Source: an uncultured Dehalococcoidales bacterium
GTDB taxonomy: Bacteria; Chloroflexota; Dehalococcoidia; GIF9; AB-539-J10
Direction: 5' to 3'
Length of the DNA stretch: 64,000 nucleotides
Assembly (NCBI GenBank): GCA_964394145.1
Contig: CAYMVL010000033.1
Coordinates: forward strand, 711-64,710
Of the stretch, positions 42,043 through 64,000 are shown one piece after another. Below the pieces are notes generated by a model. The model saw only the letters and a program-made list of their open reading frames with translations. It had not been told where the DNA came from and did no database searches. Position 1 is the stretch's first letter; each line of letters begins with the position of its first letter. Both the position numbers and the translations under genes were made by a program.

Positions 42043-42975
42043 ATGGAATATAGACCGCCTGTCGAATCTAATACCGGGGTAGTCAATGAGGTAACCCTGG
42101 GCAAGCCAGGGGGGAAAACAATAAGAGTTGGAGGGGAAAATATCATGCCCTTCCATTTTTTTGATGAAGGTTCGTGGCCAAACCCTCCGGTGTTTGCACT
42201 ACAGATATTAGATAGGGAGCCGCCTCAGGATTTGCCTGGCTTTCTTTATGAGCCCTTCAAGGATGTGGTTCAGGACCCAGCCCAGTGGGCTAAGAAGGTG
42301 GAGGGATTAGACTATGTAGATGCGATCGAACTTTATCTTATGTCTACTGACCCCGCCGACCTTGATACAGGTCCTGAAAGAGCAGCTGAAGTGTCAAGAA
42401 AGGTGGCAGAGGCAACAAGCCTGCCTTTGATTATTTACGGCTGCGGCGATCCTGATAAGGACGCCAAGACTCTTCCCGCAGTCTGTGAAGCAGTTCATGG
42501 CATGCATTACTTGATAGGTCCGGTGCAGAAGGAGAACTATGAACCTTTGGGGAAGGCAATTCTAGACCATGATTTGTATCTCAGTGCTCAAACCCCAATG
42601 GATATTAATTTGCTAAAGGAATTGAATGTTAAGCTGGGACATTTTACTCCCCTGGAAAGGATAATCATTGACCCGATATCACCGGCTTTAGGGTATGGAA
42701 TAGAATACACTTATAGTCTGATGGAGCGTGTCAAGCAGCTTGGCGAGATTACTAAGGATAAGACGACCATGATGCCTATGATTGCTGATTTTGCTACCGA
42801 GGTTTGGAGGACTAAGCAGGCCAGGGAAAGTGAACAGCAGGGTTTGGTCTGGGAGGCTATGACCTCGTTTATGCTTCTTCAAGCCGGGGCGAATATTGTC
42901 ACACATCGATATTACAAGTCGATAAAGTTGGTAAAAGAAATGTATGAAAGCGAGGTGCAACAATGGCAGAAGTAG
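42043..42975 (+). CDS. cdhD: Corrinoid iron-sulfur protein small subunit (ACDS delta subunit)
   Basis: The 310-aa TIM-barrel protein lies in the conserved position before cdhA. Its size and composition match AcsD/CdhD. It has no Fe-S motif, as expected for this subunit. Confidence 0.7.
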   Translation: MEYRPPVESNTGVVNEVTLGKPGGKTIRVGGENIMPFHFFDEGSWPNPPVFALQILDREPPQDLPGFLYEPFKDVVQDPAQWAKKVEGLDYVDAIELYLMSTDPADLDTGPERAAEVSRKVAEATSLPLIIYGCGDPDKDAKTLPAVCEAVHGMHYLIGPVQKENYEPLGKAILDHDLYLSAQTPMDINLLKELNVKLGHFTPLERIIIDPISPALGYGIEYTYSLMERVKQLGEITKDKTTMMPMIADFATEVWRTKQARESEQQGLVWEAMTSFMLLQAGANIVTHRYYKSIKLVKEMYESEVQQWQK

Positions 42976-45272: not shown

Positions 45273-45372
45273 TCTTGCTGCTTTGGAGCAAAAGGGAGAG
45301 GGAAAGAGGTAGCAAAAATTGAATACGATTTTATTTGGTTTTCAGGCTTAAGTCTGAAAAAGGAGGATAAAG

Positions 45373-45930
45373 ATGGCGATGATACCGACTCATAGGGTAA
45401 ACGTCCTGACAGGGATAAAGTCAGCGAGGATCGTAGAGGATGCCTCTCAGTACGCTGGCTACATCCGAACGGCAAGAAGGCCTCTTCTTGTGATTGGGCC
45501 CATGCTCGAAAAATGGTCGCTTGATGGAAAGTTCGCAATCGAATATGCGCTTGAGATAGCTAAGTCGGGCAATATTCCTGTATGTGCTACGGCGACTACC
45601 AGAAAGAAGGTCATGGAACTGGGTGTGGAGCCTGATAGCGCGCTTGACGCCGTGGAAGTAGTGAACCACCTCAAAGACCCTGGATGGCAAGGGGTCAAGA
45701 AACAGGGAAATCACGATTTGGTTATCTTCTTTGGCATCAGGAGCGACATGGAAGAGCAGATGCTTTCTGTGCTGAAACATTTCGCTTATAAACATTTAAA
45801 GACCATGACTCTGGACAAGTATTATTTCCCCCATGCCAATTATTCCCTTCCCAATATGCCCAAAACTGAAAAGTGGCAGGCATTCTTAGAGGATTTGATA
45901 GCTAATTTGCAGGCAAAGTCTAAAAAATAA
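45373..45930 (+). CDS. cdhB: ACDS epsilon subunit (CdhB-like)
   Basis: The 185-aa ORF sits between cdhA and cdhC, exactly where archaeal cdhB sits. Its size matches. It has no Fe-S motifs, as expected. The assignment is by synteny and size only. Confidence 0.55.
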   Translation: MAMIPTHRVNVLTGIKSARIVEDASQYAGYIRTARRPLLVIGPMLEKWSLDGKFAIEYALEIAKSGNIPVCATATTRKKVMELGVEPDSALDAVEVVNHLKDPGWQGVKKQGNHDLVIFFGIRSDMEEQMLSVLKHFAYKHLKTMTLDKYYFPHANYSLPNMPKTEKWQAFLEDLIANLQAKSKK

Positions 45931-45944
45931 GGAGGCATAAATAT

Positions 45945-47180
45945 ATGGAATGGCATTCAGATGTTGGACCACAATATGAGGGTGAGGTTATCAGGAAGGC
46001 GGATATGTGGATTGAGTTTGGCGGTCCTAAGGTGCCCGCAGGGAGCAAACTGGAGTTTTGTCGCTTACGGAAGCCGGAGCAAATTGAGCACGAAAAGGTT
46101 GAGCTTATAGGTCCCGATATAGATACAATGGAGGAAGGGGGAAGCTACCCTCTCGGTATCTTAGTTGAAATCTATGGAGAGCAACTTGATGAGGATGCAG
46201 TACCAATCCTTGAGCGAAGAATTCACATGTTCTCAAGCTATATCGAGGGCTGGTACCATATGAATCAGAGAGGGGATATATGGATAAGGTTGAACAAGGA
46301 CTGTGGGAAGAGGGGATGGAAGTCATTAAAGGAGTATGGCGAAATACTCAATTTCCTCTACACCTCTGAGATGGATATAATACAGAAGATTCAAGTTACG
46401 CTTATTACTGATCCGGAAGCAATACAGAAGCTGTATCCTGAGGCTAAAGCAGCCTACGAAGCTAGAGATGCCAGGGCGTTAACCCTGAATGATGAAGATG
46501 TGGATACGTTTTATGGCTGTGTGCTTTGCCAGAGCTTCGCACCCACGCATATTTCCATCATAACCCCTAATAGAATCGCCAATTGTGGGGCCATAAATTG
46601 GTTCGACGGCAGGGCAGCAGCTAAGATCGATCCCGAGGGACCGATATTTGCCGTGCCCAAGGGTAAACTGATTGACCCCATAAGGGGTGAATATGAGGGG
46701 GCAAATAAGACAGAGTATGAGAGGTCTTTAGGGACTTATGATAGGGTTTATCTCTATAGCGCCTTCGAGCATCCTCATACTTCCTGTGGCTGCTTTGAAG
46801 CTATTGTCTTCTATATTCCTGAAGTTGACGGCTTTGGGATAGTGGATAGAGAATTCAAAGGTCCAACTGTAACCGGAGAGACTTTTTCGCACATGGCCGG
46901 TGACACATCGGGCGGAAGGCAGGTGGAGGGTAGATTGGGCACTGGCCTGGAGCAAATGCGATCTCCAAAATTTATCCAGGCAGACGGAGGAAGAAGGAGG
47001 GTGGTCTGGATGCCTAAGGTAATAAAGGAAAGATACAGGGAACCATTTGAAAAAGACGGGGTATACGATAAGATACCCACAGAAGAAGATGTTAAGAACA
47101 CAGATGAACTACTGGCTTATCTGGAGGAGCATCAGCATCCGTGGATAAAGGGCGAAGTTGAGCTTCCGGAGTTGCCTTAG
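45945..47180 (+). CDS. cdhC: Acetyl-CoA synthase catalytic subunit, short archaeal-type (ACDS beta, A-cluster)
   Basis: The product contains YGCVLCQSF...ANCG (Cys ligands of the [4Fe-4S] part) and HTSCGCFE (the Cys-Gly-Cys motif that binds the proximal and distal Ni). It is 411 aa and lacks the long N-terminal domains of the bacterial AcsB, which is about 730 aa. Confidence 0.8.
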   Translation: MEWHSDVGPQYEGEVIRKADMWIEFGGPKVPAGSKLEFCRLRKPEQIEHEKVELIGPDIDTMEEGGSYPLGILVEIYGEQLDEDAVPILERRIHMFSSYIEGWYHMNQRGDIWIRLNKDCGKRGWKSLKEYGEILNFLYTSEMDIIQKIQVTLITDPEAIQKLYPEAKAAYEARDARALTLNDEDVDTFYGCVLCQSFAPTHISIITPNRIANCGAINWFDGRAAAKIDPEGPIFAVPKGKLIDPIRGEYEGANKTEYERSLGTYDRVYLYSAFEHPHTSCGCFEAIVFYIPEVDGFGIVDREFKGPTVTGETFSHMAGDTSGGRQVEGRLGTGLEQMRSPKFIQADGGRRRVVWMPKVIKERYREPFEKDGVYDKIPTEEDVKNTDELLAYLEEHQHPWIKGEVELPELP

Positions 47181-47225
47181 TCTTGTTTTTTGGAAATAAA
47201 GTTTAAGTAGTAAGGAAGGTTTGTT

Positions 47226-48635
47226 ATGCCAGTTTCAGGAACCGCGTTGATAAAGATGCTTCCTAACAGGAAGGGGTGTAAGGATTGTGGTTTTCCTACC
47301 TGCTTTGCATTTGCTATGAAGTTAGCTTCTGGAGGGACTACTGTAGATAAATGTCCTTATCTTGACGAAGATACCAAAGCTAAAATAAATGACCTTCTAG
47401 CACCTCCGCAAAAGCTTGTAACCGTAGGCTCAGGAGATAATAAGTACGAAATTGGGAACGAAGAGGTAGTCTATCGCCATGACAAGACTTTCGTGCATGA
47501 GCCTGCCATTGCTTTGCTTGTGTCGGATAAGGAGAATGACGAGGAAATAGAGAGAAAGATAAAGAAGATACAGGAAGTGCACTATCCTTGGGTGGGCTTG
47601 ACTCTGCATGCAGACCTTCTAGCTCCTCACTTTGAATCGGGGGACAAAACGAAATTTTTGGCTTTGGTAAAGAGACTCTGCGATTCTACAAATGCAGGTA
47701 TGGTTCTTATCTCGGAAGACACGGACGTTCTATTTGCGGCCAGGGATATCTGCGGCGATAGAAATCCTTTGATTTATCCCATAACAAAGGAGAATATAGA
47801 TATTGCGATACCGAAACTCAAGGAGAAACCCACCGCAATAGGGATTCGTGCAGAGGGCGTAGAACAACTCATACCTTTGACTACTAAGCTGAAGGATGCT
47901 GGGCTTGACCATCTTGTTATGGACCCTGGCTCCAAGGGTATAATTGAGGCACTTAGGGATCAAACGTTTATTAGGAGGGCAGCTTTAAAAACCGGCTTCA
48001 AAGCTCTCGGTTATCCAACCATAGCTTTCCCGTGTTTCATAAACAAAGATGGGCTAAAGGAAATGCTGGCTGCCTCTATGTTTGTAGATAAGTATGCCGG
48101 TATCATCGTCCTTTCCGATCTCAATCCTAATTACATGTTGCCCTTGCTGGTGCAACGGCTCAATATTTATACCGACCCACGCTTCCCCATGTCTGTGGAG
48201 CAGAAATATTATGAGATAGGACAGCCTACTGAGGAGTCCCCTGTTCTCATGACTTCGAATTGGTCTTTGACGTATTTCGTCGTGGCATCAGCCATTGAGG
48301 CTACTAAAGTGCCTTGTTTCCTTCTGGTGCAAGATGCGGAGGGGCTTGGTGTTCTCACTGGTTGGGCTGCGGGTAAGATAAGCGGAGATACTGTGGGCAA
48401 GCTTGTTAGGACCTGTGGTATTGAAGAGAGAGTGAAGCACAGGCAGCTGGTGATTCCAGGAAGAATAGCTCGAATTTCGGGTGAGACTATGGACGCTCTG
48501 GATTGGAAATGGGAAGTGACAGTTGGGCCCAGGGAATCAACCGCAATAGGAGCTTTCCTCCCTAAATATGCCAAAGAACTTAAGGAAAAGATAGCTGCCG
48601 GCAAGGGAATTCCAGCAGAAGTGGAAAATGAGTGA
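47226..48635 (+). CDS. cdhE: Corrinoid iron-sulfur protein large subunit (ACDS gamma)
   Basis: The N-terminal motif CKDCGFPTCFAFAMKLASGGTTVDKCPY (C-x2-C-x4-C-x16-C, a [4Fe-4S] site) is typical of AcsC/CdhE. The product is 469 aa. A TIM barrel plus a B12-binding-like region follow. Confidence 0.8.
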   Translation: MPVSGTALIKMLPNRKGCKDCGFPTCFAFAMKLASGGTTVDKCPYLDEDTKAKINDLLAPPQKLVTVGSGDNKYEIGNEEVVYRHDKTFVHEPAIALLVSDKENDEEIERKIKKIQEVHYPWVGLTLHADLLAPHFESGDKTKFLALVKRLCDSTNAGMVLISEDTDVLFAARDICGDRNPLIYPITKENIDIAIPKLKEKPTAIGIRAEGVEQLIPLTTKLKDAGLDHLVMDPGSKGIIEALRDQTFIRRAALKTGFKALGYPTIAFPCFINKDGLKEMLAASMFVDKYAGIIVLSDLNPNYMLPLLVQRLNIYTDPRFPMSVEQKYYEIGQPTEESPVLMTSNWSLTYFVVASAIEATKVPCFLLVQDAEGLGVLTGWAAGKISGDTVGKLVRTCGIEERVKHRQLVIPGRIARISGETMDALDWKWEVTVGPRESTAIGAFLPKYAKELKEKIAAGKGIPAEVENE

Positions 48636-51101: not shown

Positions 51102-51862
51102 TGGCTAGGAAAATCGTTTCTACTGGAAGAGGAGGATCAGGGAAATCAACTTTTGTCGCCTTGATTAGCAAGTACTTGAAACCACCAACGTTGCTTATTG
51201 ACCTCGACCCTGACCTTAGCCTTGCTGATATGCTCGGCATGGATTTTCGTAAGGAAGGGAAAAGGACGGTTTGCGAGGCACTTTATGATGTTGTTGAAAA
51301 AAGAAAAAGCAATGTAAGCCCAACAATCACAACGCACGAGATGATGGAAGGCATGCTATGGAGCGATTGCTTGTACGAAGGGGAAAAAACGGACATCATT
51401 AGCCTTGGAACAAAGTTAACTGAAGGCTGTCTTTGCGCTCCGGACGAGATACTCAGGAGAGCAATTCCCAAGCTCGCTAAGAATTACGCCAACCTTGTAA
51501 TAGACTCTCCAGCTGGAGTGGAACATCTGAATCGGAATGTAGTGTCGGACGTAAATGACCTTTTCGTTATATGCGACCCCTCTGATAAATCTCTGAAGCA
51601 CATACCGAGGATAAAAGAGATTATAAAGCAGGTGGGGATTAAGTATGGCCATCTGTATCTTGTGGCGAACTATGAGTGTAATGGAGAGGCAGAAAATTAT
51701 CTGCAGCAGGTAGGTGAAGTCTATTTGGGCAAGGTAGAGTATGATGCCGAACTGGCACAGTATAATCTGGAAGGCAAGTCGCTTCTGGATTTGCCGGAGG
51801 ATTCAGTCGCTTCTTTGTCAGTAAAAAGAATTTTAATTAAAGCCGGTTATGAGATTAGGTAG
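51101..51862 (+). CDS. cooC: CooC/AcsF-family ATPase, copy 2
   Basis: The product begins MARKIVSTGRGGSGKSTF and contains ...GCLCAPDE (CxC). It is 253 aa and is a paralog of copy 3. Its start is shared with the NuoF-like stop region. Confidence 0.75.
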   Translation: MARKIVSTGRGGSGKSTFVALISKYLKPPTLLIDLDPDLSLADMLGMDFRKEGKRTVCEALYDVVEKRKSNVSPTITTHEMMEGMLWSDCLYEGEKTDIISLGTKLTEGCLCAPDEILRRAIPKLAKNYANLVIDSPAGVEHLNRNVVSDVNDLFVICDPSDKSLKHIPRIKEIIKQVGIKYGHLYLVANYECNGEAENYLQQVGEVYLGKVEYDAELAQYNLEGKSLLDLPEDSVASLSVKRILIKAGYEIR

Positions 51863-52122
51863 AGCGTACAGGAGTCAGGATCAATACAGGTAAGGTAGCC
51901 AAGAGTAACGTTAATGTCAAATAACAGTATGATTCACCAGCAGGAGGTATGATAAGGTCTTATGCCTATGCTACTGAATGCTGTGATGCTTCCCGGGACA
52001 AAGAGAAGCTATGAGCTTGGTCATAACGGCGAATCGCAGGTCTCTATGAGCAAGGTAATTCATATGCTCAGGCGTAAGCCTATGGAGATAGCCATGGGAC
52101 TAAGCTGGATCAGGTCAGGGGA

Positions 52123-52293
52123 ATGAGAGAGAAGCGACTATATTGGTGCCCTTTTTGCGAGCGTAACGTTTCCTTATGGAGGACAAAAGATAATAAACTA
52201 ATTTGTCCACGGTGTGGTAGAGAGGTGGTTTACATAACAAACGACGGTCGTATCGGGGCTATCAGAGGGAAGGAGGGGATTGCAAATAAATAG
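52123..52293 (+). CDS. Tiny zinc-ribbon protein (56 aa, two CxxC pairs)
   Basis: The product is MREKRLYWCPFCERNVSLWRTKDNKLICPRCGREVVYITNDGRIGAIRGKEGIANK. It is below the 60-aa ORF-track cut-off. It lies between two cooC paralogs, and its 3' end overlaps the start region of cooC copy 3. Confidence 0.4.
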   Translation: MREKRLYWCPFCERNVSLWRTKDNKLICPRCGREVVYITNDGRIGAIRGKEGIANK

Positions 52294-53117: not shown

Positions 53118-53849
53118 ATGAATGCACAAGTGCGAAAACCTTTTGAAGATGTCTTGGGATATCTTGAGGGGAAGAAGAAGATAGTGGTTATGGGATGTGG
53201 AGGATGCGCTACAATCTTCCATACTGGTGGTATACGAGATGTTGATGAGATGGCAGAGAAGCTTACGGAGGCGGGGAAGGAGGTAATAGGTAAAATCGGG
53301 CTACCTTTTGGGGTATTTACGTGCTATCTTCCCATGTCTTCTATGTTCCTGAATGAACACAGAAAGGAAATAGAGGAGTGCGATGCGATACTAATGCAGG
53401 CTTGTGGCGACGGGGCGCAGGCGGTGCGGGGCTATTTGGAGGATGAGTGGGGTATCGTCAAGCCGATATACCCATCTAACGATGCCCTTGGGTTTTCCAG
53501 TGGAGGTCCCAGTGATTTCAAGGAGGAATGTGGGGCATGTGGGGAGTGTGAGCTTGGGAAGACTTTTGGTATTTGTCCTTTCATACAGTGCCCTAAGGGG
53601 TTGCTTAATGGTCCCTGCGGTGGAACGACTGAAGAGGGTAAGTGCGAGGTGGATCCTACGCGAGACTGCGCTTGGGCTATGATTTATAAGAGGGCAGTAG
53701 AGCTTGGTGAGCTTGATCAGCTTCTGGACATAATTGAGCCGCATCATTGGAGTAAAAAAGTCCACCCAAGATCATTAACGGTTGAACCTATTGACCTTAT
53801 GGAGGAACTGAAGGGAACGAAGAGAGTCATAGAGGCACTAGGGCTATGA
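53118..53849 (+). CDS. metV: MetV-like Cys-rich protein (methylene-THF reductase C-terminal-domain family partner subunit)
   Basis: The 243-aa product contains GCGGCAT, CGACGECELGKTFGICPFIQCPKGLLNGPCGG and GKCEVDPTRDCAWAMIY. These resemble the Zn/Fe-S-binding MTHFR_C small subunit found next to metF in acetogens. AGGAGG lies 9 nt upstream. Confidence 0.6.
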   Translation: MNAQVRKPFEDVLGYLEGKKKIVVMGCGGCATIFHTGGIRDVDEMAEKLTEAGKEVIGKIGLPFGVFTCYLPMSSMFLNEHRKEIEECDAILMQACGDGAQAVRGYLEDEWGIVKPIYPSNDALGFSSGGPSDFKEECGACGECELGKTFGICPFIQCPKGLLNGPCGGTTEEGKCEVDPTRDCAWAMIYKRAVELGELDQLLDIIEPHHWSKKVHPRSLTVEPIDLMEELKGTKRVIEALGL

Positions 53850-53912: not shown

Positions 53913-54782
53913 ATGAGCAGATTCAGCGAAGCGTTACAATCGCACAAGTTTGTGGTAACAGGTGAAATCGGCCCACCCAAGGGAGTTGATATTGGCGAGA
54001 TGCTAGAAGCAGCCAAGCTATACAAAGGAAGAGTTGTGGCAGTAAACGTTACTGACCAGCAAAGTGCTGTTATGAGGTTAGGTTCACTGGCAGTTTCACA
54101 TCTTCTTAAACAAATGGAGCTGGAGCCTATTTTCCAGATAACTTGCCGTGACCGTAATCGTATTGCAATACAATCAGATTTGCTCAGTGCCCATGTCTTG
54201 GGAATTGAGAATGTGCTTTGTCTGACCGGCGACTATGTCACTTTAGGTGATCATCCTCAGGCTAAGCCTGTTTTTGATCTTGATTCAGTGTCATTGCTTC
54301 AAACTGCCGTCCAATTGCAGCAGGGTAAGGATTTAGCCGGTAAGGAACTTCAGGGTTCCCCTAAATTCTTCCTGGGTGCTATAGTAACTCCGGGGGCTAA
54401 TCCTCTAGAGCCACAGATTATCAAAATGGAGAAGAAGGTCAAGGCCGGCGCTCAGTTTTTGCAGACTCAGGCTGTCTATGAGCCGAAGAAGTTCGAGGAA
54501 TTCATACAACAGGTGAAACATATCGGTGTACCGGTGCTGGCGGGGATCATCCTTTTGAAGTCGGCCGGTATGGCTCGCTTCATGAATAGAAATGTTGCTG
54601 GGGTGCATGTCCCCGATAATCTTATCGAGGAGATGGAAAAGGCAGAGAATAAGGCAGATAAGAGCATTGAGATTGCCGCTCGGTTGATTAGTGAGCTCAG
54701 AGGGCTTTGCCAGGGGGTGCACATTATGCCCATCGGCTGGGAGAAAAGGGTTCCTGCAGTCTTAGATGCTGCTAAATTGTAG
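53913..54782 (+). CDS. metF: Methylenetetrahydrofolate reductase (acetogen-type MetF, no C-terminal regulatory domain), copy 1
   Basis: The 289-aa TIM barrel begins ...KFVVTGEIGPPKG and contains ...VNVTDQQSAVMRL...CRDRNRIAIQS...LCLTGDY. It is a paralog of copy 2. Confidence 0.75.
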   Translation: MSRFSEALQSHKFVVTGEIGPPKGVDIGEMLEAAKLYKGRVVAVNVTDQQSAVMRLGSLAVSHLLKQMELEPIFQITCRDRNRIAIQSDLLSAHVLGIENVLCLTGDYVTLGDHPQAKPVFDLDSVSLLQTAVQLQQGKDLAGKELQGSPKFFLGAIVTPGANPLEPQIIKMEKKVKAGAQFLQTQAVYEPKKFEEFIQQVKHIGVPVLAGIILLKSAGMARFMNRNVAGVHVPDNLIEEMEKAENKADKSIEIAARLISELRGLCQGVHIMPIGWEKRVPAVLDAAKL

Positions 54783-54812
54783 ATGCTATGATGGTATAAT
54801 AATAGGAATAAT

Positions 54813-55973
54813 GTGATGAGCGATAAACAAGTTATTAATCCTGATTCGTTAGATAGAGAAGCGCTATTGCAGGTCCTGAGAAAGTCCAGCCTATTTCAAG
54901 GGGCGGAGGAAGAGGAATTATCGAGGATAGCCGGTTTTTCTCATGAAGAAAGGTTCGAGCCAGGAGAAGTCATAGTTGCTGAAGGTGAAGTTGCCGAGAA
55001 AGTGTATATTGTGGAGGAGGGAGAGGTAGGGCTTGAGGCTAGTCTATCTGCGCGGCCTGGCTCAGAGAGACGGGGTACCATAGGACTTGTTGTTCAAGGA
55101 GAAGCTTTTGGTTGGTCAGCCATCTTAGAAGGCCGACTGACAATGACTGCTCGAGCTATCTCAGCTGTTAGGGCCATTGTCATTGATAGCCATGCCTTGA
55201 ACGCTCTCCTTGTTACGGACACGAGGCTCTGCTCCACTGTGATGAGGGGAATAGTAGAGATTGTTTCTCTTCGGCTTACGAACACCATAACCATGCTGGC
55301 ACATATTCTGTCGGTTGCATCTCACGATCTTAAGTCACCTCTGGCTGCTGTGCAGAGCTATCTTCAGGTAATTCTTGGTGGTTTTGTTGGTGAGCTAAAT
55401 GAGAAGCAAAGGGAGATGCTCTCTCGGAGCTGCACGAGAATTGCGGAATTCCTTGAGATGATTGATAACATCTTGGATGTTTCTCGCTTTGAATCTGGGC
55501 AGATGGAAATGGCCGAGCTGTCTCTGAATGATATAGTGCGTGATAGCACCGAGATACTTCGTCCTCTGGCTGATGAGAAGCAGTTGAGTCTTAATCTGGA
55601 CCTACCTGATGAAACGCAGAAAGCTAAAGGCTCAGCGACACGACTCAAGCAAGTAGTCTCTAACTTGGTAGGAAATGCCATCAAGTTCACTCCCAGCGGA
55701 GGCAAAATTTCTGTTAAGTTAACGGAAGATGATGCCTACCACAGGGTAGAAGTGGCTGATACGGGCGTGGGCGTTTCTCCTGAGGACCTACCCAGGATAT
55801 TTGATGATTTTTATCGTGGGGTAGCTGGAGACACCGAAGCTAAAGGGAGTGGTTTGGGTCTTTCGATTAGCAAGAAGATTATCGAGGCTCACGGTGGCAG
55901 AATTTGGGTTGAGAGCCCTTGTTCTGAGACGGGTAAGGGTAGCAAATTCATTTTTGTCCTGCGCAAGGGCTAA
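54813..55973 (+). CDS. Soluble sensor histidine kinase with N-terminal cyclic-nucleotide-binding (Crp-like effector) domain
   Basis: The cNMP-binding domain contains LFQGAEEEELSRIAGFSHEERFEPGEVIVAEGE...ERRGTIGLVVQGEAFGWSAI. The HisKA H-box is SHDLKSPLAAVQSYLQ. The HATPase_c domain contains GLGLSISKKIIEAHGGRIWVES. No TM helices are present. Confidence 0.8.
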   Translation: MMSDKQVINPDSLDREALLQVLRKSSLFQGAEEEELSRIAGFSHEERFEPGEVIVAEGEVAEKVYIVEEGEVGLEASLSARPGSERRGTIGLVVQGEAFGWSAILEGRLTMTARAISAVRAIVIDSHALNALLVTDTRLCSTVMRGIVEIVSLRLTNTITMLAHILSVASHDLKSPLAAVQSYLQVILGGFVGELNEKQREMLSRSCTRIAEFLEMIDNILDVSRFESGQMEMAELSLNDIVRDSTEILRPLADEKQLSLNLDLPDETQKAKGSATRLKQVVSNLVGNAIKFTPSGGKISVKLTEDDAYHRVEVADTGVGVSPEDLPRIFDDFYRGVAGDTEAKGSGLGLSISKKIIEAHGGRIWVESPCSETGKGSKFIFVLRKG

Positions 55974-55995
55974 GATTAATAAGCGAAAGGAATTT

Positions 55996-56919
55996 ATGGT
56001 GATGAAAGCAGGAACTAATCTGGAAAGAGTCTTAGAAAGCGGCGCTTTCGCGGTCACTGCTGAAGCGGCTCCAGCTAAGGGAGCTATCAGCAGCGTTATT
56101 GAGAGGAAGGGGGAGATGCTTAAGCTCTATTGTGACGCCGTGAATGTCACCGACAACCAATCAGCGGTGGTTAGAATGTCGAGCTGGAGCAGTTGTGTTC
56201 TGCTAAAAAGCTTTGGCATCGACCCGGTAATGCAAATTGTTGTGCGGGATAGGAACCGGCTAGCCATCCAAAGCGACGTTTTGGGTGCTGTATCTTTGGG
56301 CATCCAGAATATCTTATGCTTATCGGGAGACCATCAATCTCTTGGCAACCATCCCGACGCCAAAGGAGTCTATGATATCGATTCTATCCAGTTGATTCAA
56401 ATGTTGAAGGCTATGCGGGATGAAAAGAAGTTTCAGAATGGTGAAGAAATATCAGGGGATGTGCCTGTCTTCATCGGTGCTGCATGTAATCCCTTCGCTG
56501 CGCCGTTTGAGTATAGAGTCCTGCGGTTAGTTAAGAAGGTGAAGGCTGGAGCTGATTTTATTCAGAGTCAGGCTATTTTTGATGTGTCAAAGTTTGCTAA
56601 ATGGATGGAGATGGTTAGAGATCGGGGCTTGGATAAGCAGGTACATATCCTCGCCGGGCTTGTTCCTGTAAAATCACTGGGTATGGCCCGATACATGAGG
56701 GACTATGTCTCCGGCATTTATGTGCCGGACGAAGTTATCAGTCGTTTGGAAGACGCCAAAAACGCTAAAGAGGAAGGAATCAAGATATGTCTCGAGACAA
56801 TTGAGCAGCTGAAAGAGATCGAAGGGGTCCACGGGATACATATTATGGCTGTTGCCTGGGAAGAGGTTGTTCCTCGCATTGTAGAGGAAGCTAAGCTCCT
56901 TCCCAGACCGGTGGTATAA
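55996..56919 (+). CDS. metF: Methylenetetrahydrofolate reductase (MetF), copy 2
   Basis: The product begins MVMKAGTNLERVLESGAFAVTAEAAPAKG and contains ...VNVTDNQSAVVRM...VRDRNRLAIQS...LCLSGDH. It is co-linear with copy 1. The start is the ATG at 55996, because the track ORF from 55849 overlaps the kinase gene. Confidence 0.75.
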   Translation: MVMKAGTNLERVLESGAFAVTAEAAPAKGAISSVIERKGEMLKLYCDAVNVTDNQSAVVRMSSWSSCVLLKSFGIDPVMQIVVRDRNRLAIQSDVLGAVSLGIQNILCLSGDHQSLGNHPDAKGVYDIDSIQLIQMLKAMRDEKKFQNGEEISGDVPVFIGAACNPFAAPFEYRVLRLVKKVKAGADFIQSQAIFDVSKFAKWMEMVRDRGLDKQVHILAGLVPVKSLGMARYMRDYVSGIYVPDEVISRLEDAKNAKEEGIKICLETIEQLKEIEGVHGIHIMAVAWEEVVPRIVEEAKLLPRPVV

Positions 56920-56941
56920 GTCTTGGAAAAAAGGAGGCATA

Positions 56942-57346
56942 ATGGCGGACCAGCAGAAGATATTGATTGTCGATGATGACCCGGATATTCTAGTAGCAAT
57001 TGGGGCTGTCTTGGAGGCACGAAACTACCAGGTAGTCACTGCGAATGACGGAGAAGAAGGTCTGAGTAAACTCAAGGAGGAAAGGCCTGACTTGATGATT
57101 TTGGATCTCCTGATGCCTCGAAAGGATGGCTTTGCGGTTTGCAAGGAATTGCGAGACCCTAGGTGGTCAAAGTATAGCAGTATTCCAATCCTGATTCTCA
57201 CTTCGGTGAGGGAAGAGGTGAGCCGAAGGCGATATGAACTCGAGACCGGTTTGAGCCTCGATGTTGACGACTATGTTGAAAAGCCCATTGACCCATTTGT
57301 GCTGGCTGAACGAGTGGAAAAGCTTCTGAAAAGGGCGAAGTCGTAG
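56942..57346 (+). CDS. Receiver-only response regulator (CheY-like, no output domain), copy 1
   Basis: The 134-aa product contains KILIVDDDPDIL...LMILDLLMPRKDGF...VEKP. It is a REC domain with the phospho-acceptor Asp in ILDLLMP. AGGAGG lies upstream. Confidence 0.8.
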   Translation: MADQQKILIVDDDPDILVAIGAVLEARNYQVVTANDGEEGLSKLKEERPDLMILDLLMPRKDGFAVCKELRDPRWSKYSSIPILILTSVREEVSRRRYELETGLSLDVDDYVEKPIDPFVLAERVEKLLKRAKS

Positions 57347-57429
57347 TGGTCAGACGTTTGCTTAGCCAAGAAGATGAAAGGCAAAGATCCTCGGTGCGGC
57401 CTGAGGATAGGAATAGCTGAGGTAAGAGA

Positions 57430-57819
57430 ATGGGGCAACCTTCTAAGATTCTTCTAATCGACGATGACCCTGATTTTGTCGAGGCAACTAGGGTTGTACT
57501 GGAGAGCCAGCCCTTTACGGTGATCACTGCTCTAGGCGGCGAGGAGGGTTTAAGGAAGGCGCGTGACGAAAAGCCTGATTTAGTACTGCTGGATATAATT
57601 ATGCCCGGAGTGGACGGCTTTCAGGTCTGCCAGCAACTGAAAAAGGATCCTGAATTGGCCCAGATTCCAGTGATCATGATTACATCGTTCTCGCAGCATT
57701 ATATGGATACTTCGTTAGGGATTGGCCAAGGGCTCAGTTTGGAAGCTGAAGATTTTGTTGATAAGCCCGTTGCCCCGGCTGAGCTTCTCATACGAGTTAA
57801 TAAGTGGTTGCCGAAGTAG
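57430..57819 (+). CDS. Receiver-only response regulator (CheY-like, no output domain), copy 2
   Basis: The 129-aa product contains KILLIDDDPDFV...LVLLDIIMPGVDGF...VDKP. It is a paralog of copy 1. Confidence 0.8.
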   Translation: MGQPSKILLIDDDPDFVEATRVVLESQPFTVITALGGEEGLRKARDEKPDLVLLDIIMPGVDGFQVCQQLKKDPELAQIPVIMITSFSQHYMDTSLGIGQGLSLEAEDFVDKPVAPAELLIRVNKWLPK

Positions 57820-57885: not shown

Positions 57886-58449
57886 ATGGTTGGTCAGCTA
57901 ATTCGAGTGTCGGAGCTTGATGCCAGCTTCAAACAGGAAGTTGTCTTTCGTGAACCTTCCTGTGCTTTGAGTGCTTGTTACTACTGTGGAACTTGCACGG
58001 GCGGATGCCCTACCCATGCACTACATCCTGAGCATGACCCGAGAAAGATAGTGAGGATGATAAATCTTGGGATGAAGGGAGATGTGTTAAGCAGTGTCTA
58101 TATCTGGTATTGCTCTGAAAAATGTTTTCTCTGTGAGAAATTCTGCCCCCAGAGTGTGATGTTCTCTAGTATATGGAACGTTCTAAGGCATATGGTGGTG
58201 GAAGGGGGATACCCGCTTCCCATTTCAATTAATGAGGATGGCTGCTCTGGATGCGGCATCTGTGTTGCTTCATGTCCCAATACAGCTATGGAACTCTACA
58301 CACAGAACGGCAATAGAATTGCCCATGTGGTCGCTAACTTATGCAAGGGCTGCGGAGCATGCAGTGCAGCCTGTCCGTCTGGAGCAATCTCAATAAAGCT
58401 CTTTGAAGACGAGAATATTTCTGCTCAAATAGAAGCGCTTGCGGCATAA
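57886..58449 (+). CDS. hdrC: HdrC-like iron-sulfur protein with additional C-terminal 2x[4Fe-4S] ferredoxin domain
   Basis: The product contains CYYCGTCTGGCP and CSEKCFLCEKFCPQ (an HdrC-type double C-x2-C-x2-C-x3-CP). It also contains CSGCGICVASCP and CKGCGACSAACP. The product is 187 aa. Confidence 0.7.
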   Translation: MVGQLIRVSELDASFKQEVVFREPSCALSACYYCGTCTGGCPTHALHPEHDPRKIVRMINLGMKGDVLSSVYIWYCSEKCFLCEKFCPQSVMFSSIWNVLRHMVVEGGYPLPISINEDGCSGCGICVASCPNTAMELYTQNGNRIAHVVANLCKGCGACSAACPSGAISIKLFEDENISAQIEALAA

Positions 58450-58458
58450 GGTATAGAA

Positions 58459-58971
58459 TTGCGGAGTGAATCAGTTAGAGCAACAGAACTCGATCCGGAT
58501 TTTAAGCGCGAGGTGATGGCTCATGAGGGTGCTCGCAACATAACCGCCTGTTTTTACTGCGGAACCTGCACGGCAGCATGTCCTGTCCATGAAGTGCTCC
58601 CTGAGTTTGATCCGAGAAAGATGGCCAGGATGGTAAATCTGGGCCTGAAGAACAATCTCTTGAGCAGCCCTTATATTTGGGACTGCACCACTTGCCTTGA
58701 GTGTGTGGAAAGTTGCCCTCAGAATGTAAATTTTTTCGAAGTGCTGAACGTGCTAAAGAACATGGCGGCACAGGAAGGATATGCACCTCCTGCTTGGGTT
58801 AACCAGACAAAGCAGGTTATGCAATCGGGCCTGGTGTTCCCCACTGAGGAAGCGTGGGTAAATAGAAGAGAAGAACTTGGCCTTCGTCCACTAAAATCTG
58901 AAGGGAAAGGGGCAGCGAAGTTAATCCAATCGACTGGTGCTGATAAGATCAGAGAGAAGAAGCAGTCATGA
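58459..58971 (+). CDS. hdrC: HdrC-like iron-sulfur protein, copy 2
   Basis: The product contains CFYCGTCTAACP and CTTCLECVESCPQ. Its N-terminus is co-linear with copy 1 (compare VRATELDPDFKREV with IRVSELDASFKQEV). It has a TTG start and is 170 aa. Confidence 0.65.
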   Translation: MRSESVRATELDPDFKREVMAHEGARNITACFYCGTCTAACPVHEVLPEFDPRKMARMVNLGLKNNLLSSPYIWDCTTCLECVESCPQNVNFFEVLNVLKNMAAQEGYAPPAWVNQTKQVMQSGLVFPTEEAWVNRREELGLRPLKSEGKGAAKLIQSTGADKIREKKQS

Positions 58972-59852
58972 GCAAGTATGCCCTGTTCTTAGGTTGCACC
59001 ACTCCCATAAGAGTCCCTCAGTACGAACTATCTACCAGATGGCTTTGTGAGCATTTTGGGGTCGAGCTAATCGACGTTCAAGATTTCGTGTGTTGCGGTG
59101 CTAATCAGATTAACATAAGTATGGAAAGCGGCCTTCTATTGTCCGCAATGAACCTGGCTCTTGCTGAAGCTGAGAATCTGGATATCGTTACTCTTTGCCC
59201 CTGGTGTTTCACTGCTTTAGCAGCGGGAGTGGAGGAGCTCAAGAAGGAAGAGGTGAAAGCCGAGGTAAATAGGGAGCTATCAACAATAGGCCTGCGCTAT
59301 AGCGGGAGAACGAGAGTAAAGCACATATCAAGAGTTCTTTATGAGGACATAGGTCTGGAAAGGATTAAGCAAGAGGTGAGGAGAGACTTGTCCAAGATTA
59401 GAGTGGCGCCGCATTATGGCTGTCGCTATCTAAGGCCAAGATGGGCCTCCAAAGGATTTGATGAACCCAATGATCCTAAGACTCTTCACCAGCTTGTCTC
59501 TGCTACCGGTGCCGTTCCTGTCGATTATGAGACTATTCATTTGTGCTGTGGAGGCAAAGTCTTCCCTGTTTCAGAGAACCTGGCTCATTCCTTGATAAGG
59601 AAGAAGCTTGATAATCTGGATAGTAAAGAGGTGGATTGTATGGTTGTTCTGTGTCAGACATGCTACCTCATGTATGCCACCCAACAGGGAAAGGTGTCGG
59701 AGAAGTCTAATGGTCAGTATAAGCTACCCATTATTCTTTACCCTCAACTTCTTGGTCTTGCCATAGGGGCAGATCCAGTATCTGACCTTGGCCTTAACTT
59801 GAATGTGCCTGCTGTCGACGCAGTAATAGCAAAGGTCGGGAACGGTTTATAA
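58968..59852 (+). CDS. hdrB: HdrB-like protein with two CCG (Cys-rich) domains
   Basis: The first CCG domain contains FLGCTTP...FVCCGANQ...LCPWCF. The second contains HYGCRYL...HLCCGGK...LCQTCY. The product is 294 aa and overlaps the hdrC stop by 4 nt. Confidence 0.75.
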   Translation: MSKYALFLGCTTPIRVPQYELSTRWLCEHFGVELIDVQDFVCCGANQINISMESGLLLSAMNLALAEAENLDIVTLCPWCFTALAAGVEELKKEEVKAEVNRELSTIGLRYSGRTRVKHISRVLYEDIGLERIKQEVRRDLSKIRVAPHYGCRYLRPRWASKGFDEPNDPKTLHQLVSATGAVPVDYETIHLCCGGKVFPVSENLAHSLIRKKLDNLDSKEVDCMVVLCQTCYLMYATQQGKVSEKSNGQYKLPIILYPQLLGLAIGADPVSDLGLNLNVPAVDAVIAKVGNGL

Positions 59853-59870
59853 GAAACAGGATCATGAAAA

Positions 59871-62800
59871 ATGGACACCAAGTCAGGAACTAAGAAAACA
59901 GGGGCTGTCTTGGTCCTAGGGGGCGGGATAGGTGGAATACAAGCCTCGCTCGATCTTGCTGAATCCGGGTATAAAGTCTATTTAGTTGAGGAAGCCCCAG
60001 CTATAGGTGGCGTAATGGCCCAACTGGATAAGACTCTTCCTACCAACGATTGTTCCATGTGTATCCTATCGCCTAAGCTGGTGGAGTGCGGACGGCATTT
60101 CAATATTGAGCTTCTGACTTATAGCGAACTTCTTGATGTCGAAGGAGAGGCAGGCAGCTTCACTGCCACCGTGAAGAAGAAGGCGAGGTTTGTAGATGTT
60201 ACACGCTGCACTGCTTGTAACCTGTGTGCCGAAGGGTGCCCGGTGGTAATGAATAACGATTTCGAAGAGGGGTTGGGCCAGCGAAAGGCAATTTATAACC
60301 TCTATCAACAAGCAGTTCCTAATGCTTATGTTATTGATAAGAGGGAAGAAAGGCCCTGCAATGCTGCATGCAAGGATGCTTGCCCCATTCATATGAACGT
60401 TCCCGGTTACATAGCTTTGATCAAGCAGGGCATGTTTATAGAGGCCTATGACCTCATTAGAAAGACTAACCCCCTGCCCGGAGTCTGTGGGCGAGTTTGC
60501 TACGCTCCTTGTGAAGATGCCTGCAATCGGGGAGAGATGGACGCTCCCCTGGCAATCCGTGAACTGAAGAGATTTGTTGCTGACCAAATCGATATTGAGA
60601 GTGTTGCGACTCCTCAAGTTTCCAAGAACGGTAAGAGAGTGGCGATTATTGGCAGTGGTCCAGCAGGTCTGTCGGCAGCCCACGACCTTGCTCTCGAAGG
60701 CTACGATGTCCTTATATTTGAGGCTTTGCCAGAGCCGGGAGGGATGCTTCGATACGGAATTCCAGAATACCGTCTTCCAAAACATATTCTTGGCCAGGAG
60801 ATTGCCTATATCGAGAGACTGGGGGTGGAAATAAGGAGTGGTGTTAAGGTAGGTGATGACATAGGGCTTGAGGAACTGAGGAGTTCTTATGATGCTGTTT
60901 TTATCAGCGTCGGCGCCCAAGAAAGCTTGAAGCTGGGAATTCCCGGGGAAAATACTCCCGGGGTGATCCATGGCATTGATTTCTTGCGCAACATAAACAT
61001 GGGTCAGGGGATTAGCTTAGGGAAGAGAGTAGTGGTGGTCGGCGGCGGTAATGTCGCTATTGACGTTTCCAGAGTGGCAAGGAGATTAGGGGTCGAGGTT
61101 AGCATAATGTATAGGCGTTCTCGGTCCGAGATGCCAGCTACTTCTGAGGAGGTCGAATCTGCAGAGCAAGAGGGGGTTAAGATTGATTTCTTGGTCAGCC
61201 CTGTCAGGATAATTGCTGAAAATGGCAGAGTCTCTAAAATTGAATGTATTAGAATGGAGTTAGGAGCTCCAGATGAAAGCGGTCGCCGTCGCCCTGTAGC
61301 CATAGAAGGTTCCGAGTTCACTATCAGTGTTGATAGCATAATTCCGGCTTTGGGGCAAGCGTCAAATGTTGAGTTTGGTAAGAAGGCAGGCCTAGATATT
61401 GATCGCAATGGAGTTATTTCAGTGGATAAATCCACTTTCGCTACTAATATTGAGGGTATATTCGCAGGTGGGGATGTGGTTACCGGTCCGGCTATGGTTA
61501 TTGATGCCATAGCTGCGGGTAAGAAAGCAGCGTGTTCCATAGATGAGTACATTCGAGGTGAGCCTTTGACTTCTAAGGAAGATGAAAAGGCTCCTGAGAA
61601 GCTCAGCGAAGAGCAGCTTTCTGCGGCGAAACAGCGTTTTGCCTCTCAAAGTAGAGTAAAGGCGAAGGAACTAGAAGCCAGCCTGCGCATCGGAGGGTTT
61701 CTCGAGGTGGAAACAGGTTATTCCATTGCTGAAGCTCAGGCAGAAGCGGGTCGATGTTTAGCTTCGCAAATAGAAGGCTGTATTGGCTGTGGTGAATGTG
61801 AGCAAAGGTGTGGGGCTAAGGCTATTAATTACGACATGCGAGATGAAATTGTAAACTTGGAGGTGGGGTCGGTCATCTTGGCTCCCGGTCTTGATGAATT
61901 TGATCCTAGTCCCTTACTCAAATATGGATATGGTAAATACCCAAATGTTGTGACCAGCATCCAGTTTGAAAGAATTATGAATGCCTCAGGCCCATATCAA
62001 GGAGAAATCATAAGGCCTTCAGATAAGAAGGCGCCCCGCAAGATAGCGTGGATTCAATGTGTGGGCTCGAGAGACGAGAGCATCGGAGCAGGGTATTGCT
62101 CGTCGGTTTGTTGTGCTTATGCCATAAAACAAGCAATTATCGCTAAAGAACATGCGGGGCAGCAATTAGACACCGCGATATTCTTTATGGACATGAGACT
62201 GCATGGCAAGGGATATGAAAATTACTATAATCGGGCGAAAGAGGAGCACGAGGTAAAATTCATCCGTTCTAGGGTATACGGGATTCAGGAAATTGATGGT
62301 ACTGGGAATTTATCCCTCAGGTTCGCAGAGGAGGATGGAAAGTTAAACGAAGAGGAGTTTGATCTCGTAGTTTTATCGGTGGGATTTCGGCCCTCCAGAA
62401 AAGGCGCGGACCTAGCCCAAAGACTTGGTATACAGCTGAACAAATATGGATTTTGCCAGACAGGTGAATTTACGCCGGTGGAGACTTCGCGGCCCGGGAT
62501 ATTTGTCTGTGGAGCTTTTCAAGGACCTAAGGATATTCCGGAAACGGTGATGCAGGCGAGCGCGGCCGCGGCGAATTCCTCAGCTCTCCTTGCCTCGGGA
62601 CGGAATACACTAACTGTATCCAAAGAATACCCTCCTGAGAAGGATGTCACAGGCCAGCCTGCCAGAGTCGGTGCCTTCATTTGCCACTGTGGAATAAATA
62701 TCGGGGCACATGTAGATGTCCCCAGTGTAGTTGAATATGTCAGAACGCTTCCAAATGTTGCGTATGCCGAGCACAATGTCTACACCTGTTCTCAGGATAC

Positions 62801-64000
62801 TCAAGAACGGATAAAAGCAGCAATAAAGGAACACAATCTTAACCGGGTAGTGGTGGCTGCCTGTACTCCCATAACCCATGAGCCTTTGTTCCGAGAGACG
62901 ATAAGAGAGGCAGGTCTTAATCCGTTTCTGTTTGAGATGGCCAGTATCCGTGAACACTGTTCATGGGTTCATATGGACGAGCCTATTAAAGCAACACAGA
63001 AGGCCAAAGACCTTGTTCGGGCCGCAATTGCGCGAGCAGCCTTGCTTCAGCCTTTACACAAAGTAAGCCTCGGACTGAGTCATGACGCGCTCGTGGTCGG
63101 TGGAGGGATAGCGGGGATGACTGCAGCCCTTAACCTGGCTGAGCAAGGGTTCAAGGTATGCCTTGTGGAACAGGAGAAAGAGCTTGGAGGGTGGGTGAGG
63201 AAAGTACATATTCCTCTGGGTGAAACAAGCCCGCAAGATTATTTGCGCTCCCTGATAAAGAGAGTTGAGGGCAATGAACTTGTTGAAGTTCTCACCGAGA
63301 CCAAGGTGGTCAAATTCGAAGGATTTGTGGGCAACTTTAAAACCACAGTTGCTAGCGGGGAGAGGCAGAGGTTAATTGAGCACGGCGTGGTCATTATAGC
63401 TACGGGAGCTAAGGAATACAGGGGTGAGGAGTATTTGTTAGGACAAGACGACCGGGTGCTCACCCTCTCCGATCTTGAGGAGAAAATCATTAAGTCTGCT
63501 GCAGAGATAGCCAAAGTTAGAAATATCGCCATGGTTCTATGTATCCGACCTGAGGAAGGCAATTTCAATTACTGTAGCCGTGTCTGTTGCACGGGAGCGA
63601 TCAAGAATGCCCTGAAAATTAAGGAGATTAACCCGGAAGCAAACATATACATACTGTATAAGGATATCAGGACCTACGGATTTAAGGAGGAGCTCTATAC
63701 CAGGGCTAGGAAGGAAGGCATCATATTTATCCGGTATGATGACGAAAAGCCACCGCGCGTCAGTCCCAACGATGGCCATCTCGAGGTGAACGCGCTCGAC
63801 CCCATCCTGGGTGAGCAGCTTATCCTGACCGCAGATTTACTTGTCCTGGCTGAGCCTATGGTTCCTTCTGAGACTAACGAAGAACTGAGAAATATCATGA
63901 AGCTTACTCTTACCAAGGAAGGGTTCTTCCATGAGGCGCATGTGAAGCTTGCGCCGCTCGATTTCTCCTCAGAGGGAATATTTATGTGTGGCACGGCGCA
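59871..64000 (+). CDS. Giant HdrL-like flavo-iron-sulfur protein: tandem HdrA-like modules with an inserted GltD/NfnB-like NAD(P)H-binding domain (3' end beyond window)
   Basis: The frame is open from the ATG at 59871 to the window end (over 1376 aa). Module 1 is HdrA-like (VLVLGGGIGGIQASLDLAESGYKVYLVEE...LDKTLPTNDCSMC, with an inserted CTACNLCAEGCP). A GltD-like domain follows (KRVAIIGSGPAGLSAAHDLALEGYDV...VVVVGGGNVAIDVSR). The HdrA thiol/FeS tail follows (CIGCGECEQRC...CVGSRDES...YCSSVCCAYAIKQA). Module 2 repeats the pattern (ALVVGGGIAGMTAALNLAEQGFKV...CSRVCCTGAIKNA). Confidence 0.75.
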   Translation, partial: MDTKSGTKKTGAVLVLGGGIGGIQASLDLAESGYKVYLVEEAPAIGGVMAQLDKTLPTNDCSMCILSPKLVECGRHFNIELLTYSELLDVEGEAGSFTATVKKKARFVDVTRCTACNLCAEGCPVVMNNDFEEGLGQRKAIYNLYQQAVPNAYVIDKREERPCNAACKDACPIHMNVPGYIALIKQGMFIEAYDLIRKTNPLPGVCGRVCYAPCEDACNRGEMDAPLAIRELKRFVADQIDIESVATPQVSKNGKRVAIIGSGPAGLSAAHDLALEGYDVLIFEALPEPGGMLRYGIPEYRLPKHILGQEIAYIERLGVEIRSGVKVGDDIGLEELRSSYDAVFISVGAQESLKLGIPGENTPGVIHGIDFLRNINMGQGISLGKRVVVVGGGNVAIDVSRVARRLGVEVSIMYRRSRSEMPATSEEVESAEQEGVKIDFLVSPVRIIAENGRVSKIECIRMELGAPDESGRRRPVAIEGSEFTISVDSIIPALGQASNVEFGKKAGLDIDRNGVISVDKSTFATNIEGIFAGGDVVTGPAMVIDAIAAGKKAACSIDEYIRGEPLTSKEDEKAPEKLSEEQLSAAKQRFASQSRVKAKELEASLRIGGFLEVETGYSIAEAQAEAGRCLASQIEGCIGCGECEQRCGAKAINYDMRDEIVNLEVGSVILAPGLDEFDPSPLLKYGYGKYPNVVTSIQFERIMNASGPYQGEIIRPSDKKAPRKIAWIQCVGSRDESIGAGYCSSVCCAYAIKQAIIAKEHAGQQLDTAIFFMDMRLHGKGYENYYNRAKEEHEVKFIRSRVYGIQEIDGTGNLSLRFAEEDGKLNEEEFDLVVLSVGFRPSRKGADLAQRLGIQLNKYGFCQTGEFTPVETSRPGIFVCGAFQGPKDIPETVMQASAAAANSSALLASGRNTLTVSKEYPPEKDVTGQPARVGAFICHCGINIGAHVDVPSVVEYVRTLPNVAYAEHNVYTCSQDTQERIKAAIKEHNLNRVVVAACTPITHEPLFRETIREAGLNPFLFEMASIREHCSWVHMDEPIKATQKAKDLVRAAIARAALLQPLHKVSLGLSHDALVVGGGIAGMTAALNLAEQGFKVCLVEQEKELGGWVRKVHIPLGETSPQDYLRSLIKRVEGNELVEVLTETKVVKFEGFVGNFKTTVASGERQRLIEHGVVIIATGAKEYRGEEYLLGQDDRVLTLSDLEEKIIKSAAEIAKVRNIAMVLCIRPEEGNFNYCSRVCCTGAIKNALKIKEINPEANIYILYKDIRTYGFKEELYTRARKEGIIFIRYDDEKPPRVSPNDGHLEVNALDPILGEQLILTADLLVLAEPMVPSETNEELRNIMKLTLTKEGFFHEAHVKLAPLDFSSEGIFMCGTA

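Follow-up and report, generated by a model that had tools for sequence, protein, structure and literature searches.

A methylene-tetrahydrofolate reductase-linked kinase and receiver cassette with a cyclic-nucleotide-binding-like sensor in Dehalococcoidia

Introduction

The reduction of methylene-tetrahydrofolate (methylene-THF) is the least understood reaction of the Wood–Ljungdahl pathway, and both the electron partner of the MetVF-type reductase and the forward or reverse running of the step are debated. Here we describe three signalling genes that are interleaved with the genes for this enzyme in a 64 000-nt stretch of DNA (the window) from an uncultured Dehalococcoidales bacterium (assembly GCA_964394145.1, contig CAYMVL010000033.1). 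They encode a cytoplasmic histidine kinase (54813–55973) and two receiver-only response regulators, RR1 (134 aa, 56942–57346) and RR2 (129 aa, 57430–57819), all on the plus strand. The MetVF-HdrABC-MvhD clusters of Moorella-type acetogens follow the same neighbourhood logic, with metV, metF, hdrC, hdrB, hdrA and mvhD (PMC7325909; PMC5736913). In these acetogens, however, metV and metF are adjacent and signalling genes are lacking (PMC5736913), whereas the window has the kinase and two receivers interleaved, two metF genes and an hdrA fusion of 1486 aa. A single sentence of Sewell et al. (2017; PMC5736913) mentions a putative two-component system ('phoBR') flanking metF_1 in the single-cell genome of a member of the deep-sea Chloroflexi; beyond it, our literature search returned no analysis of the conservation, sensor or output of the cassette, and nothing relevant in PMC7325909 or PMC2702500. 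An earlier note, made from the sequence of the window alone, had considered signalling genes in a Wood–Ljungdahl operon to be non-standard, which holds for classical acetogens but not for the present lineage, where they are the rule and where Sewell et al. (2017) had noted them.

Each part of the module is of a known kind. The 'phoBR' label, used by JGI as well as by Sewell et al. (2017), refers to the PhoR/PhoB–WalK/WalR systems, and the kinase core is nearest to the PnpS, PhoR and WalK models, the receivers to those of the OmpR/PhoB family, such as Bacillus subtilis PhoP (1mvo) and RpaB. The scores are nevertheless far below the NCBIfam equivalog cut-offs (157.9 versus 334.2 bits for PhoR, 86.7 versus 296.2 bits for PhoB), neither the kinase nor the receivers reach the cut-off of any NCBIfam model, and the module has no PAS or transmembrane input, no winged-helix DNA-binding domain and no Thr or Asn four residues after the phospho-accepting His (position H+4). 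With the cAMP- and cGMP-binding domains of CAP and of PKA and PKG, the sensor of the kinase shares the beta-barrel fold and a C-helix that leads into the effector part, but a Trp replaces the Glu and a Thr the Arg of those domains. CheY, DivK, MrrA and an exopolysaccharide regulator (PMC12802240) are likewise receiver-only proteins with an intact phospho-acceptor, and their output is protein–protein interaction (PMC5964349). The solved receivers that we matched lack the extended alpha4 helix of RR1 (SRRRYELET). We know of no single-domain regulator whose target is a folate or Wood–Ljungdahl enzyme. Together the parts make up a module that is linked to a metabolic enzyme and has a non-canonical 'GWS' sensor and receiver-only outputs.

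Conservation of the kinase–metF–receiver cassette

Homologues of the kinase number in the thousands; the best 120, which we examined, all combine cNMP-binding, HisKA and HATPase domains, and the few that are named come from Dehalococcoidia or Chloroflexota. For the survey we took one genome per species, which gave 80 loci, and labelled their open reading frames (ORFs) by BLASTP against the proteins of the window. Synteny was counted in the 51 loci that include at least 1.5 kb upstream and at least 2.5 kb downstream of the kinase gene.

A metF gene lies within 700 nt of the kinase gene in 48 of these 51 loci, and a receiver-only protein is encoded within 1.1 kb of it in all 51. The exceptions are L049 (the 49th genome with metF), where the kinase gene is divergent from an operon of hdrA-like, Fer4, metV, metF and hdrC genes; L057, where cooC, fhs and fdhA adjoin the kinase–receiver pair; and L028, to which we return below. 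The carriers are mostly Dehalococcoidia and other Chloroflexota, together with metagenome-assembled genomes (MAGs) of Syntrophobacteraceae and of organisms recorded as 'delta proteobacterium', and the identity of their kinases ranges from 40 to 75%. Recurrence in some 50 other species puts the arrangement far outside what chance would give, and a linkage conserved across two phyla speaks for a functional connection with the reductase.

The gene orders vary around a constant set of kinase, RR1 (with or without RR2) and metF. We found metV-kinase-metF-RR-RR behind a NiFe hydrogenase; metV-metF-kinase-metF-RR-RR, as in the window; kinase-RR-RR-Fer4-metV-metF-hdrC preceded by a divergent metF; and metF-kinase-RR-RR-hdrC-hdrB, so that hydrogenase, Hdr, formate dehydrogenase (Fdh) and CODH/ACS (carbon monoxide dehydrogenase/acetyl-CoA synthase) genes come and go. 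Kinase homologues at 67% and 49% identity lie in the same cassette, with a NiFe hydrogenase and HycI upstream and either formate-dehydrogenase-like genes or nothing related downstream. In most related loci metV adjoins the cassette, Fe-S, Hdr or hydrogenase genes usually accompany it, in many loci an hdrC-like gene follows the receivers, and many carriers have a single metF nearby. There is often a 4-nt overlap between the stop codon of the kinase gene and the start of metF, which points to translational coupling. Within 5 kb upstream and 6 kb downstream of the kinase gene, the surveyed loci encode no Hpt protein and no conserved DNA-binding regulator, and hdrA is the only other unlabelled gene family that recurs in this span.

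Two variants of the arrangement deserve mention. In L006 (6372–12898) the small and large subunits of a NiFe hydrogenase and the HycI protease are encoded directly upstream of metV-kinase-metF-RR-RR, away from CODH/ACS; the same arrangement is found in L017, L018, L025–L027 and L032 and in the Syntrophobacteraceae loci L055, L060 and L068–L076, and it looks like a hydrogenase-linked MetVF reductase module common to Chloroflexota and Desulfobacterota. In the other variant, the kinases carry a PilS-like domain with six transmembrane segments (L077, 840–2708; L078, 1850–3397; L083, 7251–8678), which replaces the cNMP-like domain or, in L077, stands beside it; these kinase genes, too, are flanked by metV/metF and two receivers.

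The sensor domain

The N-terminal domain of the kinase (residues 46–135) matches the cNMP_binding family PF00027 with 52.9 bits against a cut-off of 27.5, in line with the fold named in the earlier note, and Pfam gives no other sensor domain. When the family motif FGWSA...TM[ST]AR is aligned with HMMER against FGELAL...PRAA[ST]A of PKA RII and RI, Trp100 (55113–55115) falls at the site of the Glu that contacts the ribose 2'-OH (FGE) and Thr109 (55140–55142) at that of the phosphate-binding Arg (R-[ST]-A); both lie in the degenerate phosphate-binding cassette FGWSAILEGRLTMTAR (55107–55154, plus strand). Among the 80 genomes, 72 of which have the domain, the Glu position is occupied by Trp in 57, Cys in eight and His in three, and never by Glu. 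The Arg position has Thr in 59 of 73 genomes and never Arg. The residues that precede it vary, and across the 80 genomes there is no conserved Arg nearby. An exhaustive HMMER search with kinase residues 1–160 found Trp at the Glu position in all 40 of the nearest relatives inspected, and all of these share the GWS motif.

Since the replacements are conserved, the domain has not simply decayed, and as Trp for Glu and Thr for Arg are a conserved mark of the family, no cyclic nucleotide is predicted as the ligand. Judged by sequence, the sensor is a distinct 'GWS' subfamily of the cNMP-binding-like beta-barrel with the signature GWS...T-x-[ST]-A-R, and cAMP or cGMP is an unlikely ligand. The expectation that a cyclic nucleotide acts on the kinase thus did not survive the inspection of the contact residues, which had been set beforehand as the check that could refute it.

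The nearest single-domain relatives of the sensor are stand-alone proteins of 150–170 aa; its other relatives are kinases. Stand-alone proteins with the GWS and T-x-S-A-R motifs are encoded in L004 (2492–2986) and also in L012, L014, L015, L058, L078 and L083–L085, so that they recur in related Wood–Ljungdahl clusters, especially beside the kinase variants without the sensor domain. Their only solved relative is 3mdp (E = 2e-12 to the L004 protein), a structural-genomics entry named 'cyclic nucleotide-binding domain protein', which we take to be from Geobacter. It likewise lacks the Glu and the Arg (FGVSSL...YTSSAR), but it is a stand-alone protein without a kinase fusion and has a Val where the GWS family has the Trp.

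The kinase core

By Pfam, an AlphaFold2 (AF2) model and Foldseek, the kinase consists of the cyclic-nucleotide-binding-like domain, a signalling helix, HisKA (48.3 bits) and HATPase_c (111 bits). The maximal Kyte–Doolittle mean over 19 residues is 1.49, so that transmembrane segments are not predicted. Translation could start at GTG 54813 (386 aa) or ATG 54816 (385 aa), and the first 19 or so residues are not conserved; the database record has the ATG form of 385 aa, and an exact look-up with the 386-aa GTG form gave no match. In the AF2 model (pLDDT 82) a continuous helix, residues 136–187, starts where the sensor barrel ends, enters the DHp domain and runs into His170. The best Foldseek matches of the model are the kinases GacS, HK853 (E = 3e-17) and WalK; as the search with the full model was dominated by the kinase core, it is uninformative on the sensor pocket.

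The H-box HDLKS (55323–55337, plus strand) contains the phospho-accepting His170, the acidic Asp171 and, at the position of the phosphatase Thr or Asn, Ser174. His170 and Asp171 are conserved in 80 of 80 genomes, and the N, G1, F and G2 boxes of the ATP-binding domain are conserved as NLxxNAxKFT, DTGxGI, FDDFYR and GxGLGL. A Cys near the C-terminus of that domain (Cys369, 55920–55922, motif ESPCPE) is conserved in 49 of the 80 genomes. At H+4, the 80 genomes have Ala (70), Ser (6), Thr (2) or Gly (2), and a Thr or Asn at this position is required for the phosphatase activity of HisKA kinases (PMC3510030). As neither is present in the window protein, its phosphatase activity is predicted to be little or none, which suggests a kinase-biased enzyme. 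The kinase and both receivers look catalytically intact.

The receivers

RR1 and RR2 match only Response_reg (PF00072; 85 and 88 bits, respectively), have no output domain and are 42% identical to each other. The phospho-acceptor is Asp55 in both (57104–57106 in RR1, 57592–57594 in RR2). The catalytic quintet of RR1 (D11, D12, D55, T87 and K114) is kept in 77 of 77 orthologues. In RR2, Asp11, Asp12, Asp13 and Asp55 are kept in 55 of 55 orthologues and Thr85 and Lys112 in 54, with an alignment gap in the remaining one. We considered and rejected the possibility that these are pseudo-receivers, as the quintet is essentially invariant. The best 120 homologues of RR1 are all of 132–137 aa and contain PF00072 alone.

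A motif analysis and the AF2 model agree on a conserved insert in RR1, an extended alpha4 (residues 91–102, REEVSRRRYELE), which lies on the usual output face of receivers. Of the proteins in the cassette, RR1 evolves most slowly: its mean p-distance is 0.34, and those of MetF, the kinase and MetV are 0.42, 0.47 and 0.51, respectively. RR1 orthologues share 76–90% identity where the kinases share 47–75%. In a mirror-tree comparison, the pairwise distances between kinases correlate with those between the RR1 (r = 0.89) and the RR2 proteins (r = 0.88), which confirms the co-evolution of the three. In some eight genomes a hybrid kinase ends in a C-terminal receiver with the RR1 signature SAVREESSRRRYELET and is followed by a single free receiver of the RR2 type, a fusion that ties RR1 to the kinase.

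Genomic setting of the cassette

The region from 37.7 to 64 kb of the window is a single co-directional Wood–Ljungdahl cluster on the plus strand. In it, metV (53118–53849), a DUF5981 gene for the small subunit of the MetVF-type methylene-THF reductase (PF12225, 100.5 bits), and metF1 (53913–54782; PF02219, 132.7 bits) are followed by the kinase gene, metF2 (55996–56919; PF02219, 137 bits), RR1 and RR2, and then by the genes for an hdrC-like polyferredoxin (57886–58449), hdrC (58459–58971) and hdrB (58968–59852). The last three, assigned with Pfam and NCBIfam, span 57886–59852 and encode electron-transfer partners. The 5' part of an hdrA-gltD-type fusion gene follows (59866–64000) and continues past the end of the window. 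The spacers from metF1 through the hdrC-like gene are 30, 22, 22, 83 and 66 nt, and a terminator scan detected no terminator-like hairpin in any spacer of the cassette.

This layout bears out most of what the earlier note had described. ORFs and Pfam place a kinase whose only sensor is a Crp-type cNMP fold between two metF paralogues, and the genes are co-directional with short spacers (22–83 nt). The two receivers are indeed without an output domain, but they follow metF2 and not, as had been stated, the kinase directly. The same locus, identical, is present in three JGI metagenome contigs (record names begin with ML8 and MLSed). The note would have been refuted by partners with an output domain encoded just beyond the window; there are none in these contigs, where the roughly 7 kb past its end hold only hdrA, mvhD (FlpD), a second metV-like DUF5981 gene and DUF3786. 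In these contigs the hdrA-like fusion protein is complete at 1486 aa and carries an inserted GltD-type NAD(P)H/FAD module.

The two metF paralogues of the window are 41% identical, and both keep the catalytic Asp and Gln. The metF2 product matches the TIM-barrel fold of methylene-THF reductases, and its LSGD Asp and QSQ Gln align with LRGD and TQ of the Thermus enzyme (1v93); for the AVTAE Glu we relied on the metF2 sequence only. An AGGA ribosome-binding site precedes the metF2 ATG at 55996.

Directly 3' of the metF1 stop codon, and 13–16 nt upstream of the kinase start, lies an extended -10-like motif, TGGTATAAT (54792–54800, plus strand), read from the sequence. At the equivalent site, nine of 10 related genomes have TGTTATAAT, TGTTAGAAT or TGCTACAAT, a consensus match only. 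The kinase, metF2, RR1 and RR2 genes may therefore have an internal promoter of their own, instead of belonging only to one long transcript. A promoter scan gave nothing in the spacers, promoter-like matches were fewer than in shuffled sequences, and an Rfam scan of the whole window detected no riboswitch and no other RNA.

Upstream of metV the cluster comprises, in order, cooC, fhs, a gene for a NuoG-like Fe-S protein, an acsE-like gene, archaeal-type cdhD, cdhA, cdhB, cdhC and cdhE, nuoE, nuoF and two cooC genes. The archaeal-type CODH/ACS set (42963–48635, plus strand), with a CdhA of 769 aa, the CdhB epsilon subunit, CdhC, CdhD and CdhE, lies in an apparent Dehalococcoidia genome. The identical JGI contigs have a further called ORF between the two cooC genes (window 51862–52280); it is small, 52–54 aa, and has no recorded Pfam hit. 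Elsewhere in the window, Pfam (E ≤ 1e-5) gives no match for two plus-strand ORFs, 28144–29541 (465 aa) and 11171–11749 (192 aa).

Proposed mechanism and alternative explanations

We propose that the cassette encodes a conserved MetF-associated two-component module whose receivers, once phosphorylated, would exert their effect through protein contact with the MetF reductase complex, a composite model to which we assign a probability of about 0.5. According to this model, either a partner protein or a small ligand, though no canonical cyclic nucleotide, would act on the GWS domain, and the signal would travel along the continuous helix into DHp and set the autophosphorylation of His170. The phosphate would then pass to Asp55 of RR1 and RR2. 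Because the kinase lacks the Thr or Asn for phosphatase activity, decay of the signal would depend on the receivers themselves, one of which may serve as a phosphate sink. The alpha4 of RR1 would form a conserved docking surface, through which a phosphorylation-dependent contact with the MetF-containing reductase complex or with its electron-transfer partners could tune the methylene-/methyl-THF step. Output by protein contact appears the most likely because the module has no DNA-binding domain, neither an Hpt protein nor a transcription factor is linked to it, and RR1 evolves slowest, with an invariant alpha4; there is a precedent for a single-domain response regulator that directly activates an enzyme (PMC12802240). 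The earlier idea of a two-component module without DNA-binding output tied to MetF and MetV is thus strengthened by the linkage across two phyla. Its further element, a switch between MetF isoforms, was rejected as a general function, as many carriers have only one metF nearby. A more specific and decidedly tentative version holds that the GWS-type sensor reads a one-carbon (C1), redox or energy metabolite and that phosphorylated RR1 and RR2 gate the MetVF-type reductase or select its electron partner (Hdr, hydrogenase or Fdh). If it is true, the flux or direction of the methyl branch would be controlled post-translationally, without transcription.

Several observations weigh against the protein-contact model. 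None of the best 120 RR1 homologues is a receiver–MetF fusion, and the tethering of RR1 in hybrid kinases would fit a relay or sink as well as an effector. The residual correlation of RR1 with MetF distances is weak (partial r = 0.39, versus 0.11 for MetV) and is confounded by paralogues and shared phylogeny. In L028 the kinase and receiver genes lie among housekeeping genes with no C1 gene nearby, and in three loci a full-length OmpR-like regulator is encoded within a few kb. Finally, the model is inferred from genomics, and an unlinked Hpt or DNA-binding partner would be compatible with the MAG fragments surveyed.

Such a partner is the substance of the main rival, a substantial though still unlikely one, in which RR1 and RR2 form a relay or sink and pass phosphate, by way of an unlinked Hpt protein or by transfer back to another kinase, to a DNA-binding regulator encoded elsewhere that sets the expression of metF and hdr. 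A hybrid kinase–receiver with one free receiver does resemble the start of a phosphorelay, single-domain receivers are known as shuttles or hubs (PMC5964349), and both the OmpR-type regulators of the three loci and the conserved promoter-like motif upstream of the kinase gene would suit transcriptional control. Against it stand the lack of a conserved Hpt or DNA-binding regulator in the span surveyed around the kinase and the position of the kinase gene between enzyme subunit genes, often translationally coupled to metF, which would be unusual for a purely transcriptional circuit. We consider it rather improbable that the receivers act on the kinase alone, by allosteric feedback or as a phosphate sink like DivK or LovR, with hydrogenase, Hdr, Fdh or general redox physiology as the true output. 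The H+4 residue, which predicts no phosphatase activity (PMC3510030), would favour a sink design, some lineages have RR1 fused to the kinase, and in many loci the genes next after the receivers are Fe-S or Hdr genes; metF, however, is the only gene that stays with the trio in every arrangement, whereas the hydrogenase, Hdr and Fdh modules do not.

Control of the phosphorelay by cAMP or cGMP bound to the Crp-type domain is very improbable. The PF00027 match exceeds the gathering score, and the best PDB sequence matches are the PKA and PKG regulatory domains, but the two residues that would make the contacts are replaced by Trp100 and Thr109, Glu and Arg never occur at these sites in the 80 genomes, and GWS is found in all 40 relatives. 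Neither a cyclase nor further signalling genes were found among the ORFs scanned in the 64-kb window, which is weak evidence, as most of the genome is unseen. Even less can be said for an accidental insertion of an unrelated two-component operon without a functional tie to C1 metabolism. Such an event would account for L028, but metF remains adjacent in 48–49 of 51 genomes despite 40–75% kinase identity, varied gene orders and a distribution over two phyla, and this explanation is effectively refuted by the synteny survey.

Implications

The GWS type of sensor is widespread, and automated annotation labels such domains as cyclic-nucleotide binding. If the module is only a transcriptional autoregulator, our results amount to a modest point of annotation. 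Kept with metF across two phyla, the module offers, in the form of three small soluble proteins whose partners and ligand are accessible in vitro, a handle on the electron partner of MetVF and on the direction in which the step runs, which is of value for organisms that are uncultured.

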